A DNA stretch of 64,000 bases from a virus (Duplodnaviria > Caudoviricetes), in the IMG/VR virus record IMGVR_UViG_2562617090_000005; one strand, given 5' to 3'. How positions within the stretch are numbered: position 1 is the first letter of the stretch; every line of letters begins with the position of its first letter. A program made the position numbers. Shown here one piece after another: positions 48,001 through 63,000 of the stretch.

Positions 48001-51000
48001 GCAAAAAATTCCGTGCGGTGCATGAGACGGAAATCCTTCTGCACCAGGCGGCGAAGAAACACTTTGACGAGGTTGGGATTACAAAGCTGCCCTCCGTCAA
48101 ATCTCTGCGTGAGGAATATGCCGGACTTCTGGAACAGAAACGGAAAGCCTATTCTTCTTACAAACAGGCCAGAGCCGATATGAAGGAGCTTTATAATATC
48201 CGGGCAAATGTGGAGCATTTGCTGGACATTCCTACCGGACGGGAACCGCAGAAGGAATCGCAGAAGTCGCGGCAATAGTTTTCCTTCTGCTTTCGGTTTT
48301 CAGCGTTCCAACGGAACGCGCAGCCATCACCGCAGGTGATGATCTCAGGGGTTTGGGGATATGTCACCAACAAGCATTTTGGCAGGAATACCGGAAACGG
48401 ATTCCTGCCAAAATACGCAATCTTACGGAAGATTGCATTGCTTGCCAGTAGTTTTAAGAGTCTTTGGCAGAGGATCTGTTTACAGTTGCCGCATTGATAA
48501 ACCTTTGATAACTGCCTATAATAGAGTTATTATTTTGAACTGCTATAACAGAGAAATGCAAAAAATTAAAATTTTCCGCCCGTTGTAACATTTCGCGGAC
48601 ATTTGGGGTTTACAATGGCCTTATCAAATATGGAGGTGATACAACTATGACATGGCCTTTTGAGAATGACACCAGCGCCATTGTAAAAAAATTAGCAGAC
48701 CGAAGCATGAAAGCGGATAAAAGACGCAATGCGTTTATTATCATAACGATTGCTTTTGCAGTTAGTTTGATGATGGTATTAGCACTATATAATCTCGGAA
48801 CAGACCGTGAAAATAGGCTTTATCTGCAAGGACGCTACCAGAGCAGCTTTATTAACAGTACCAGTGCCGTCTTTGAAAAACTGGAACATAACAACCAGAT
48901 TGAAGCAGTCGGCAAAGAGGCTGCAATGGGAACGAGCCGTATCAATGACTACACTTTGGATGTGTATTACAGAGATCAAAATGCACTTGAACTAAAAGGC
49001 GTTACTGACTTGCTGGGAAAAATGCCGGAGGCAGAAAATGAAATCATTGTGGAACAGTCCTATTTGGAGCATTTAGGGCTGCCGGTTCAACTGGATCAAA
49101 CCGTTACACTGGATATGCCTTTTGGAGAAAATCAGACATATCATGTTTGCGGCATTATTCAAAGCAGTAATGCGTCCCGTATTTATCAAGTCATTGTATC
49201 GGATGGCTTATATAGCCGGTATGGAAAAGCAAACTGTTACGATCTTTTGGTTCGCGTGAAAAATACCGAAAATATGGACAGCGAAACTTTGAAACTGCTG
49301 ATAAACGAAATTGCGGAACAAAGCGGTGTACCTGAACAGTATGTTATGTATAGCTCTACCTACTTTGGATTGGCAGAAGAAAAATCCACGCAGGAGCTAT
49401 TGGTGATTATCGGAGCAAGCAGTTTAATTGTACTGGCCTGTTCTTTGGTTATTTACAGCCTGTTCTACATTTCTGTTATCGGGAAAACACATGAATATGG
49501 CAGACTGCGTGTGCTGGGGGCTACATCGGTTCAGATCAAGCGTATCGTGCGAAAAGAAAGTTTTTTGTTATCCTGTGCTGCAATTCCTATCGGCGTTGTA
49601 TTGGGAAGTGTTTTGGGCTATTGTTTCGTCCCGGACGGCTGGCATTGGATGACTACACTGGAATGTGCCGTTGTGATTGCCCTTGTTACAGAAATTGCCT
49701 TAAAAATTGCTGTCCATACCCCTGTAAAGAAAGCCTCTATGGTATCGCCTATTGAGGCGCTGCGAATCAATACGACTGATACACCGGCGACAGAAAAAAC
49801 GCGGATCGAACATCGAAAAATCACGCCATCTTCGCTTGCCCGAATGAGCTTTGCCCGGAACAAGAAAAAAGCTATACTAACCATATTGTCTTTGGGATTT
49901 GCCGGAGTTTTACTGATGTGTGCCGCCACCTACCTTAATTCAACTGATGTAGAAAGCATGGCAAAACAGCAATTTGCAAATGGCGACATTGTACTTTCCC
50001 TTGATCCCGCCAACACAAATGCGGAAGATCGCCCCGCCGGGATCAATGCACTTCAAACAAAAAATCCATTGGATGAAGTTTTGGAAGAAACGATTTCAGA
50101 TATGGATGGCGTAAAGAATATTGAATTTATACAGGGCTGTGTTTCAAATATGGAATTTCCCACTCCTTTCAAGGATGGTAACAGCCATTTCTTTACCCAA
50201 ATTGGAATCCCCGAAAATCAGTACGAGGCCTTTTCACAAGGACTAATTGAGGGAACCGCAGACCGCCAGAAACTTATCAATGGAAAAGGAGTTATCGTTG
50301 ATAATTCCGCCAAGCTGTTAAGCGACTATTATAATTACACTCCTCAAATTGGCGATATAGTCAAAGTGGAAACAGCGGATGGACAATGGGAAGAATTTAC
50401 TGTAATGGGGATTGGGAAAGCTCCTAATCTCGGTGGGGATTCAGCTTCTTTCTATTTTCCGCAGGAACTCTTACCTATGATGAAAGAAAATGTTTCCAAC
50501 TTCAACATAACCTGCATTGTAGATGTGGAAAGAGATCAGCTTACAGAAGTTGAGAATAAGATTTTCCAGTTGGCGGAAAATCGTGGAGGTATAGAAGTTT
50601 TCAGTATCAGCGATATTATTACTTATCTGCAAGAGGAAATGGATAACATAAAAATGCCGTTATACGGATTGGTATTTTTCATTGCTGTTTTTGGGCTAAT
50701 CAGCCTTATCAACACGCTAATGACAAACATTATATCAAGACAGCAGGAATTTGGTATTTTACAGTCTGTGGGATTGAGCAGTAAGCAATTCTCCAAAATG
50801 CTGCAAACAGAATGTTTCTATTATGTTTCTGGTACGGCTATTCTAACTTTAACGATTGGAACTTTAACAGGATTTGTACTTTGCAAAGTTTTCAATCAGG
50901 TTGGGACATTCGGGACATTGACTTATCATTTTCCAGTTTTAGAAATAAGCATATATTTTGTAGCGCTTTTCTTCATACTGGCAGCTTACTCCGTTTTCTC

Positions 51001-60000: not shown

Positions 60001-63000
60001 ATTTCACCCCGATTTTCAATGAAATTTTTTGGCCGCTGTAACATTTCGCGGACATTTGGGTTTTACAATACCCTTATCAACAAAAGTGAGGAGGCGACGC
60101 AATGGAACTGACCCCAACATTGATTTTGAATCTGGCGCTGCTGATCGTCCCGCCCGTTGCCCTTGTGCTGGTGTTCCGGCAATGGCTGGCCCGGCACATC
60201 CGCTGGACGGTTGCCTTGACTGCCCTCTGTGATGTTCTTCTGTTCTGGGATGAACTGTTCTACTATGAGAGCTTCGGCCTGTTCGCTGTGCTGGTTCTGG
60301 TGCAGTTGGCGGCCACCGGCGCAGCAGCGTTCCGCATTTACTGCAAACAAAGAAAGTAAAATACAGCCTCATTACTACTCTGGTAAATATCCCGGAACTG
60401 ATTAGACGGGGTGTTTTTTGTGGAATAAAGTTGGATGGAATATTAGCGGATGAAATAGGCACTTCCTGTTAAAAGAAATTGGTCAGGATAGTAATTTTAT
60501 TATCCCGACCAATTTTTGCTATTATGAACTTTTCTTAAACTATATTGCTTTTTGGAGCCTTGCGTGTTATACTGTTATACACAACAGCATAACAGTTAAA
60601 ACACACGGAGGATGCAGCAATGAAACTGATTATTTCAAATGTATCTGGCGTCCCCATATACGAGCAGATTAAACAGCAGATCAAGGCGGCTATTTTATCT
60701 GGCGATCTTCAAGCCGAAGAAACTTTGCCTTCCCTTAGAACACTTGCCAAAGACTTAAAGATCAGCGTCTTAACAGTGACAAAGGCATACACAGAATTAG
60801 AGCAAGAGGGCTTTGTTAAAAATGTGCAGGGGCGCGGATGTTTCGTAATGGGGTCTGGTTCAGAACTGATTAAGGAGCAGCTTATTTGCAAAGTAGAAAA
60901 CAATCTCACCGAAGCAATAAAAGCTGCAAGAATGGCAAATCTATCCACAGAGGAATTACATCGCCTTTTGGACATTTTAACGGAGGTAAAAACAGATGAC
61001 TAATTATTTAGAGGTAACGAACCTTTCAAAATCTTTTGATTCTTTTCAGCTTCACAATATCAGCTTTACTTTGCCAAAGGGATATATTATGGGCTTGATC
61101 GGCCCGAATGGTTCTGGCAAAACAACGACAATCAAACTGATTTTGAATATGCTCAAGCGCACCGGCGGCACAGTCAAAGTGATGGGGCTGGATAATATCG
61201 CAGAAGAACAAAAAGTAAAATCAGAGCTGGGCGTTGTTTTCGATACAAATTATTTCAGTGATGATTGGAAAGTGTCGCAGGTTGAAAAATCCATTTCGGT
61301 ATTTTATCCAAATTGGGACAGCCAGAAATTTGTGGATATGTTACGGAAATTTCACATTGCACCAACCAAAAAGGTAAAAGAACTTTCCAAAGGTATGCAG
61401 ATGAAGTTAATGCTTGCCTGTGCGTTTTCATACGACGCCAAACTGTTGATCCTCGACGAGCCGACCAGTGGACTTGATCCGGTTTCCAGAGATGAACTTT
61501 TGAAAATTCTTTCAGAGTATATTGAAGATGGCGAGCATAGTGTTTTGTTCTCCACCCATATCACAGGCGATTTGGAGCGTGCAGCCGATTATATTACCTA
61601 CATCAGTTATGGCGAGTTGTTCTTTACTGGCAGCAAAGATGATTTTGTAGATATGTTCCGCATTGTAAAAGGTGGAATTGAGGAACTGTCCGATGATCTG
61701 AAAAATAAGGCGGCTGGTATTCGTACATTCCCTACGGGATTTGAGGCTCTGATGAAAACCGAAGATATTAACGGTTTCTCCAACCTGACTGTTGAGCCTG
61801 CCACTATTGATGAAATTGTAGTGTTTACAAGCAAGAAAGGTGACGATTATGAGTAATATTTTGAAATCCACAAAATTAGATATTGCATTGGTAAAACCAT
61901 ATTTTAAGACGATTTGCTTTACCCTGCTTCTGCCGATTGTGTTTGCCGCAATCAACCGTTCTTTGCTGACAGGGGTATCATTTGCTATGTGCTTTATTGC
62001 CATGACGACGGGATATACCTTTTCCATCACAGAAAAAAACAGTATGGATCGTCTGTTTGGTATTTTACCTGTTCGGAAAAGCGAGCTTGTGATCGGACGC
62101 TATGTTTTCGTCCTTGCAATGGGGCTTCTTTCCTTGATTATTTCTTTGATTGCACAGCCGCTTGTCTTGAAAGTGCTGGGTGAAACAGTTGGCGTATTTG
62201 ACATTGTAACTGCCGCTATTGCAGGAGTATTCTTATTTGCACTCTATACTGTGTTCCAGATTCCGGGATATTACAAGTACGGCTCAATCAAAGGACGGGT
62301 ATTTATGTATATTCCAGTGGCCGGTTTTTTGGTGACTTTACTTCTTCTCTCTAAAATGCCAGCCATCGGGAAATCAATTATTTCAGTCGTTGAATCTTCT
62401 CCGATACTTCTCGTTTTCCTTGCGGTTTTTGCTATTGTCGTGATGTATGCGGTTTCGATCTTCTTGTCCATTCGGATTATGAAGAACAAAGAAATGTGAG
62501 GTGATTGTATGGATTTCACAATTTTGGCAGTTGTGCTTTTGCTTGGTGTTGGCGTTCCTATCCGTAATAAACTCATACGGAAATATCGGGATAAGAAAAA
62601 GAATGATCGCTATTCGGAGTGAACAATATGGAGAAAACAGAGTTCATCCGCTGCCCAGTCTGCGGGAATAAAACACGCGACAAAATTCGGGAAGATACCG
62701 TACTTAAAAATTTTCCTCTCTTTTGTCCAAAATGCAAAAGTGAATGTCTAATCGACATTGAACAATTCCATATAACCGTTATCAAAGCGCCAGACGCACA
62801 GCCGCAGAGCCGATAACATAAAGGAGAAATTCTCTTTTATGGTTGGCTCTGCTTTTTTTATTAAATTAAGGAGAGAACAACTATGGGAGACTATGCACTT
62901 ACAACAAGTAAACTATGCAAGTATTATGGGCAAAATCAAATATTAGAGAATGTAACAATGTCAGTACCGTCAAAAAGCATCTACGGCTTGGTTGGAGAAA

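Follow-up and report, generated by a model that had tools for sequence, protein, structure and literature searches.

Divergent YbbP-like permeases as probable exchangeable cassettes between repeated arms in a putative conjugative element of gut Clostridia

The region described here is a tandem array of ABC transporter genes within IMG/VR record IMGVR_UViG_2562617090_000005, a metagenome-derived contig of 72,890 nt which IMG/VR classes as a provirus; the window, by which we mean the whole stretch of DNA that was analysed, comprises 64,000 nt, and positions are counted from its first base. Three permease genes (A, B and C, carrying in that order the alleles p05, p02 and p10), a response regulator (RR), a histidine kinase (HK) and two copies of an ATPase gene follow one another on the + strand, as do all genes of the array region, and are interspersed with a repeat, referred to here as the arm, which carries a promoter, a small gene and the ATPase gene (Table 1). 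With a probability that we put at roughly 78%, the region is a cargo module of an integrative and conjugative element (ICE) of gut Clostridia, in which a constant chassis is combined with permease cassettes that have been exchanged via the arms.

Table 1. Features of the array region and its borders, in window coordinates (aa, amino acids; TM, transmembrane helices)
Feature	Position	Strand	Basis or remarks
MobA/VirD2-type relaxase	46869..48278	+	Pfam Relaxase PF03432, E 4e-34; just 5' of the cargo array
Promoter P0	48569..48627	+	Operator 48584-48607, TACAAT -10 element; ahead of permease A
Permease A, allele p05, 802 aa, 8 TM	48647..51055	+	Pfam FtsX x2; topology
OmpR/PhoB-family response regulator	51100..51834	+	Pfam Response_reg + Trans_reg_C
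Histidine kinase, 343 aa	51831..52862	+	HisKA + HATPase_c
Terminator hairpin after kinase	52866-52897	+	-23.4 kcal/mol, z -3.3, U-run next
Arm 1	52903..54005	+	Half-site, operator/promoter, small gene, ATPase gene, first 30 nt of permease B
Arm 1 small gene, 86-aa 3-TM protein	53030-53290	+	Within arm 1
Arm 1 ABC ATPase gene, 224 aa	53287-53961	+	Within arm 1
Permease B, allele p02, 794 aa	53976..56360	+	Pfam; YbbP-like duplicated FtsX permease
Terminator after permease B	56373-56398	+	Hairpin
Arm 2	56421..57523	+	96% identical to arm 1; small gene 56548-56808, ATPase 56805-57479
Permease C, allele p10, 805 aa	57494..59911	+	Pfam; topology
Terminator after permease C	59927-59952	+	Hairpin
Partial arm 3	59975..60359	+	Operator/promoter and 85-aa small gene (60102-60359); no ATPase
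GntR regulator, ABC ATPase, ABC-2 permease (PmtR/PmtA-like)	60620..62499	+	Pfam, NCBIfam; GC 0.41

The repeat structure given in a preliminary description of this DNA was borne out by self-BLASTN and a repeat search. The unit of ~1.1 kb at 52903 (52903-54005) recurs at 56421 (56421-57523, offset 3,518) with 96.0% identity over 1,103 nt, its first 382 nt (52903-53284) are found again at 59975-60356 with 95.8% identity, and a further alignment, of 56354-56802 with 59905-60356 (93.4% over 453 nt), takes in terminator, promoter and small gene. The core promoter, which had been placed at 48584 as well, is indeed there: the segment 48569-48627 and the three arm promoters share 88-90% identity, and a 24-nt box, TGTAACATTTCGCGGACATTTGGG, is present in four exact copies (48584, 52965, 56483 and 60037; 0 expected). 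The box contains two ACATTT repeats spaced by 11 bp (one helical turn), and only a few bases lie between its end and the TACAAT -10 element; each arm has an extra half-site 42 nt 5' of the box. Such a layout is that of a putative activator site standing in for the -35 element, and it is perhaps not surprising that a sigma-70 promoter scan did not pick up the cassette promoters, as would be expected if the operator replaces that element. From its position P0 is predicted to drive permease A and probably RR and HK too; the permease A stop codon and the RR start are separated by 44 nt. Every cassette closes with a strong hairpin. The bracketing of the permeases by full arms, as first described, holds for B and C, whereas permease A has only the core promoter on its 5' side and neither small gene nor ATPase gene.

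Comparison of the ATPase genes of arms 1 and 2 shows 24 nt differences, 20 of which fall at third codon positions, and 3 amino-acid differences. Differences so placed argue for distinct copies under selection and not for a duplicate created during assembly, which agrees with the use made of the point differences in the preliminary description. The permeases were confirmed to begin and end alike and to diverge strongly in between: all start with MTWPFENDTS and end with ERIKTME (A), EQIRTME (B) or ERLRTE (C), but pairwise identity is 33% for A/B, 27% for A/C and 26% for B/C. They are also, as had been judged by eye, more AT-rich than the repeats, with a GC content of 0.39-0.42 (0.38-0.42 at third codon positions, GC3) against 0.51-0.56 (GC3 0.68-0.71) in the arms and the two-component system (TCS); over all alleles found in related loci GC3 is 0.27-0.47, and in arm ATPases it is 0.69. 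GC-biased gene conversion was considered for the high GC of the arms and set aside, because the non-repeated ICE backbone has an equal GC content.

Hydropathy gives the permeases eight TM helices and two extracytoplasmic domains of ~200 aa, the first of which is shortened or absent in alleles p11 and p12. According to Pfam, AlphaFold (AF2) and Foldseek, an FtsX module of four TM helices, with an extracytoplasmic domain between TM1 and TM2, occurs twice per chain; MacB_PCD is recorded in close relatives and there is a partial match to TIGR03434 ADOP. Permease B was modelled with AF2 from an alignment of 24 sequences (mean predicted local distance difference test score 81), and the model found its best Foldseek match in E. 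coli YbbP (9ge6_A), over the full length and with a template modelling score of 0.63 (E 2e-22), whereas LolE, MacB, BceB and YtrF were matched as halves or more weakly, the BceB structures at 0.33-0.41. Sequence searches agree with this fold assignment, and the permeases are, as modelled, YbbP-like 8-TM type VII ABC proteins and not BceB. Identity between alleles is distributed very unevenly, with 78% for the N-terminal 20 residues, 40-50% for the stretches that follow TM2 and TM6 and 19% for the extracytoplasmic domains. In MacB-type permeases, as established for MacB, the coupling helices are located after the corresponding TM2 and TM6 regions, and a conservation pattern of this kind would be expected if all the permeases fit one ATPase while facing different ligands. 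Clusters of permease B relatives at 90% identity hold as many as 10,500 sequences each, and more distant p02-like permeases exist at 74-93% identity. In three sequences (P0005, P0006 of 1,021 aa, and P0017) the arm ATPase reads through into a permease 99% identical to B; these fusions could be sequencing errors or real single-chain MacB-like forms.

The best NCBIfam matches of the ATPase are LolD, DevA, FtsE, the MacB nucleotide-binding domain and YbbA, all below the equivalog cut-offs, and it is predicted to be of the MacB/LolD/FtsE type. The ratio of non-synonymous to synonymous divergence (dN/dS) of the arm ATPases is 0.08, indicating strong purifying selection. The 86-aa protein was without a match in Pfam or NCBIfam, and the ESM Atlas returned only its own clusters. 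Its gene (53030-53290, 56548-56808 and 60102-60359 in the window) is absent from a class of ‘short’ arms and from many single-cassette modules; as all the short arms are without the same 285-nt stretch, the small protein appears to be dispensable, at least for single-cassette modules. The N-terminus of the kinase consists of two hydrophobic TM helices joined by a loop of ~3 residues, which would make it a kinase of the intramembrane-sensing type, lacking a sensor domain.

For comparison, 90 related loci were collected, drawn from over 70 gut Firmicutes genomes and from IMG/VR records. The small protein as query gave 15 loci in IMG/VR, and a tblastn search with the kinase (E <= 1e-3) gave 331 genome matches in species-representative genomes, the best 80 of which were kept. 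These best 80 of the 331 kinase relatives are 96-99% identical in amino acids and belong to Lachnospiraceae, Oscillospiraceae, Erysipelotrichaceae and other hosts, while the RR is 96-100% identical across the 90 loci. The permeases fall, when clustered at 80% identity, into about 21 alleles which are only 20-40% identical to each other, so that TCS proteins 96-99% identical are linked to about 21 different permeases. The preliminary description had called for cassette number, order and alleles to be compared across related elements, and none of these is fixed: 32 architectures were found among 57 uncut arrays, of which 34 hold one permease, 20 hold two, two (the window included) hold three and one holds four. 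The window's array is therefore among the largest combinations seen. In its plain form, regulator-kinase-promoter-ATPase-permease, the module occurs with at least nine different permeases.

Three kinds of arm are found upstream of the permeases: promoter, small gene and ATPase; promoter and ATPase; or promoter alone. Alleles p03, p05, p12, p14 and p15 are of the last kind, and may be called orphans. Permease A (p05) is one of these orphan cassettes, with a dN/dS of 0.15 among 8 copies; orphan permeases are intact and have dN/dS values of 0.14-0.15, like the others, and an ATPase gene is always present elsewhere in the array. On the left, arm homology ends at +25 to +41 nt of the permease open reading frame (ORF) for every allele, once the codons for MTWPFENDTS have been passed. 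Across 18 alleles the nucleotides are 100% identical at +0 to +14 and 87% identical at +15 to +29, and identity has reached background by +60; at the protein level the decapeptide is kept even beside a diverged ATPase (p20). On the right, junctions are specific to the allele and lie 42 to 23 nt before the stop codon, at it, or up to about 50 nt beyond it (given overall as -42 to +153). Right junctions this variable are not what a fixed recombination site would produce and fit exchange that is limited by homology.

The clearest cases of replacement are pairs of loci in which nearly identical backbones carry unrelated permeases. Over 1,763 nt of RR-HK DNA a single nucleotide separates locus L054 (Faecalibacterium) from locus L055 (Lacrimispora), and yet they have p01 and p08, respectively; homology breaks off 52 nt inside the permease gene, is found again from 8 nt ahead of its stop codon and then continues for 6.7 kb at 98.8%. 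The same pattern is seen in L040/L041 (p01 vs p06) and in L062/L048 (p09 vs p04). Loci L038 and L059 differ by one extra unit of p13, small gene and ATPase gene, and the two alignments that flank it overlap inside the ATPase gene, a probable footprint of unequal crossover between ATPase copies. The p02 and p10 cassettes of the window are present in L032 at 98% identity and in reverse order. A further proposal of the preliminary description, to set the ATPase phylogeny against the permeases, also revealed incongruence: 43 changes of permease allele are needed on the ATPase tree against a minimum of 13, and supported clades mix alleles. ATPase divergence is 6.1% for pairs with the same permease allele and 6.9% for pairs with different ones, 47% of informative ATPase site pairs fail the four-gamete test, and the minimum number of recombination events (Rmin) is 55. 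Copies of the ATPase gene within one element are closer than copies in different elements (5.0% vs 6.8%, p = 0.0065), which suggests conversion between arms within an element. Synonymous divergence (dS) is about 0.27 among arm ATPases, 0.04-0.13 within any permease allele and saturated between alleles; since it is greater among the arms than within alleles, individual alleles appear to have spread across older arm backgrounds.

Exchange of permease cassettes via the repeated arms, as originally proposed, is thus well supported on an evolutionary scale by near-identical backbones with different permeases and by clean junctions at the permease edges. Two observations argue against the accompanying idea of an ‘accordion’, at least of a fast one. 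No allele occurs twice in any of the 57 uncut arrays, and identical arrays recur in different host families; from both it follows that arrays look stable on short time scales.

Four other explanations were weighed. The one that survives best, although we consider it improbable, is that reads of several co-resident elements sharing arms were chained by the assembler into one array. The IMG/VR contig is derived from a metagenome, two or three modules are held by several genomes (among them those of Dorea sp. 5-2, F. prausnitzii strain 2 and L. eligens), and the p02-arm-p10 linkage is unique to the window, all of which would suit such an error. However, all three arm copies are marked by point differences of their own, most of which are synonymous, and the remaining joins of the window are found elsewhere: p05-RR-HK in L008 and L033, HK-arm-p02 in L007 and L009, p10-promoter-small gene in L032 and L057, and promoter-small gene-GntR in L019 and L099. 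Multi-cassette arrays are moreover present on megabase scaffolds and in a long-read assembly (L029, L080).

Still less probable is a site-specific cassette system, integron- or shufflon-like, in which a dedicated recombinase acts at defined sites, possibly at high frequency. No recombinase gene was found in or beside the arrays. The constant left junction, at +25 to +41 of the ORF, and the strong hairpin at the end of every cassette are what one might look for in such a system, but identity at the left junction fades over about 45 nt instead of stopping at a single base, the right junctions vary by allele from -42 to +153 relative to the stop codon, the crossover that separates L038 from L059 lies within the ATPase gene, and identical arrays persist across host families.

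Very improbable, and about equally so, are two explanations that do without exchange. According to the first, one ATPase-permease operon was duplicated locally in tandem and the permeases diverged in place. The direct repeats do have a regular 3.5-kb spacing, and ATPase copies within an element are on average somewhat closer to one another than to copies elsewhere; against this, arms of 96% DNA identity alternate with permeases of 26-33% protein identity and a GC3 gap of 0.3, the same alleles occur at 97-98% in other elements, in other positions and combinations, and for each of the two window ATPases, copies in other elements are nearer than the second copy in the window. That selection alone maintains the arms while the permeases merely evolve fast could account for the low dN/dS of the arm ATPases (0.08) and for a decapeptide conserved in the protein beside a diverged ATPase (p20), but not for synonymous sites that are conserved in the arms (dS about 0.27) and saturated between permease alleles, the systematic GC3 difference, backbones 1 nt apart with unrelated permeases, or the 47% of ATPase site pairs failing the four-gamete test. 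On the combined mosaic evidence, which is that of sequence comparison, in-place divergence and selection alone are both rejected.

The reading of the region as a chassis with exchangeable permeases should nevertheless be considered with some caution, as several points weigh against it. Recombination is read from mosaic patterns, and the sharing of ATPases between permeases is the simplest reading of which genes are present. The kinase does not co-vary with the permease, unlike that of Bce modules, which bears on the supposed route of sensing, and sequence searches place no allele near a characterised transporter. Most of the related loci are short-read drafts, in which 1.1-kb repeats can mis-join or break contigs; 33 of the 90 loci are cut at or near the array, and the p02-arm-p10 linkage was not seen in any other locus. 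The order of cassettes in multi-cassette arrays is accordingly less secure than the single-cassette replacements, which are unaffected by mis-joining of repeats.

We propose that the module works as follows. The chassis consists of the OmpR-type regulator, the intramembrane-sensing kinase, the 24-nt operator, which overlaps the -35 region of every cassette promoter, and the MacB/LolD-type ATPase, with or without the 86-aa protein. The cassettes are 8-TM YbbP-like duplicated FtsX permeases which vary most in their extracytoplasmic domains and of which the cytoplasmic MTWPFENDTS N-terminus, the coupling-helix regions and the C-terminus are the conserved parts. By analogy with Bce modules (PMC11009047), the kinase, having no sensor domain, would report transporter activity or envelope stress, and the phosphorylated regulator would turn on all four promoters, P0-P3, its own operon included by way of P0. 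ATPase dimers from either arm would power any permease, permease A too, and each permease would handle a different envelope-active compound, most likely a peptide antibiotic or bacteriocin, by removal or shielding; by the same analogy, defence against peptide antibiotics or bacteriocins may be taken as the function of the whole. On the comparative evidence the arms act as portable homology for recombination within an element or between co-resident elements, through which permease cassettes have been replaced, inserted, deleted and reordered.

The nearest known systems are the Bce-type peptide-antibiotic sensing and detoxification modules of Firmicutes, such as BceRS-BceAB and PsdRS-AB (PMC11009047). 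An OmpR-type regulator is present in both, as is an intramembrane-sensing kinase whose two TM helices are joined with hardly any loop; a MacB-type ATPase and an FtsX-family permease under the regulator's control are a further likeness, which here would hold by analogy. In Enterococcus faecalis, one TCS regulates more than one transporter. However, BceB has ten TM helices and one large domain between TM7 and TM8, where the present permeases have eight and two extracytoplasmic domains; kinase and permease are a co-evolving pair in Bce modules, whereas here kinases 96-99% identical stand beside about 21 alleles; and here several permeases would share ATPase genes in a module that is both mobile and modular. 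By analogy the module may well work like a Bce module, but with two defining features failing it is not classed as one. The only studied system with a fused double FtsX permease is YbbAP-TesA of E. coli (PMC12646458; PDB 9GE6). The 8-TM topology, the two periplasmic domains and the separate MacB-type ATPase are alike, but sequence identity is only 14%, and the present module is Gram-positive, under two-component control, on a mobile element and has many alleles. No gene for a TesA-like lipid hydrolase was found in the array or its flanks.

Cargo of a similar kind, on elements of what is probably a similar type, is known among the Tn1549/CTn5-like ICEs and MOBQ integrative and mobilisable elements (IMEs) of gut Firmicutes (PMC3383454, PMC3158075, PMC12084326). 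In the available parts of these papers, the cargo of C. difficile CTn5/Tn1549-like elements is listed as an ‘ABC transporter of unknown function’ (PMC3383454), and ABC transporters probably for antimicrobial-peptide efflux are named among the cargo in a survey of Faecalibacterium ICEs and IMEs (PMC12084326); those parts give lists of cargo and do not describe shared arms, an allele series or cassette replacement. Our literature search likewise returned only listings of ‘ABC transporter’ cargo and no account of the arms, the allele series, the in-frame junction or cassette replacement.

Allelic replacement via conserved flanks is itself well known from the pneumococcal cps locus (between dexB and aliA), O-antigen loci and the hsdS genes of type I restriction-modification systems, in which divergent, often low-GC central genes are swapped by homologous recombination and exist as discrete alleles. 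What differs here is that the flanks are tandemly repeated within a mobile element, so that cassettes can stack and reorder, and that the exchanged gene has one of its junctions within its coding sequence. In group II energy-coupling factor (ECF) transporters one energising module is common to many S components, much as one ATPase module here appears to serve several membrane specificity subunits; those transporters are, however, importers of an unrelated fold. The array is a combination of known kinds, namely Bce-like regulation, a type VII ABC transporter and allelic replacement through conserved flanks.

A more far-reaching interpretation combines three statements, which we hold jointly only as a tentative proposal, a little more likely to fail somewhere than to be right throughout. 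The array would be a recombinase-free cassette system, in which a mobile chassis circulates in gut Firmicutes and takes its permeases from a reservoir of 20 or more ancient YbbP-like forms of low GC; the invariant first ten codons of the permease would encode a docking peptide for the ATPase (or the kinase) and at the same time provide an in-frame anchor for recombination; and one ATPase would power several unrelated type VII permeases, making it the first shared energising module in this class.

The module is very common in gut metagenomes and is carried between host families by ICEs and IMEs. Should the permeases determine what is defended against, be it bacteriocins, host peptides or peptide drugs, their swapping would re-tool the defences of a commensal without any new regulation. 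The natural series of about 20 permeases, all of which would need to be compatible with a single ATPase and a single kinase, opens the surfaces used for docking and signalling in type VII ABC systems to direct testing, and cargo modularity that would come from repeated homology and not from an integrase is of relevance to the biology of mobile elements.

Several observations concern related arrays. In L050 (14403-19240) and L091 (5050-9839), p01 and then p02 stand behind one ATPase, with only ~30 nt of arm before p02. Loci in Sellimonas catena (G001:C1:1932251-1936495) and Dorea sp. 5-2 (G003:C4:232006-237969) have arm ATPases only 74-80% identical, promoter pieces which are 81-95% identical at some sites and a permease start at 86-94%; in Sellimonas catena two ATPase copies are separated by 3.5 kb. 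These sequences seem to represent a more remote sister family built to the same cassette plan. High-identity arms were present in 6 of 151 Sellimonas-family genomes sampled, a rough prevalence as three candidates were scored per genome. Allele p07 is found 5' of the regulator in six loci (L037, L066, L074, L077, L085 and L089) with a promoter box and an ATPase of its own, 47% identical and with a GC3 of 0.28, and this unit has the look of a complete cassette acquired from a low-GC donor. A 7-kb contig which carries the module (L033, CAUAWO010000089.1) is binned in a Bacteroides stercoris metagenome-assembled genome, probably through a binning error rather than by cross-phylum transfer.

As to the element itself, genes for NikA/MobC, topoisomerase III and DUF4316, DUF3849 and DUF4314 proteins (Pfam/NCBIfam) lie 5' of the relaxase gene. 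On the basis of these and of the relaxase the record reads as a conjugative element; the genes around the array are typical of Clostridia ICEs, and the provirus label is probably wrong. The same cargo module also occurs on another backbone, with a relaxase of 27% identity. At the 3' border, the low-GC GntR/ABC-2 transporter module is a separate unit, which partial arm 3 faces. The junction of promoter, small gene and GntR gene recurs in L018, L019 and L099, and in L057 and L076 the GntR/ABC-2 module sits 5' of the TCS; to judge from the arm promoter, this module may be under the control of the RR as well.

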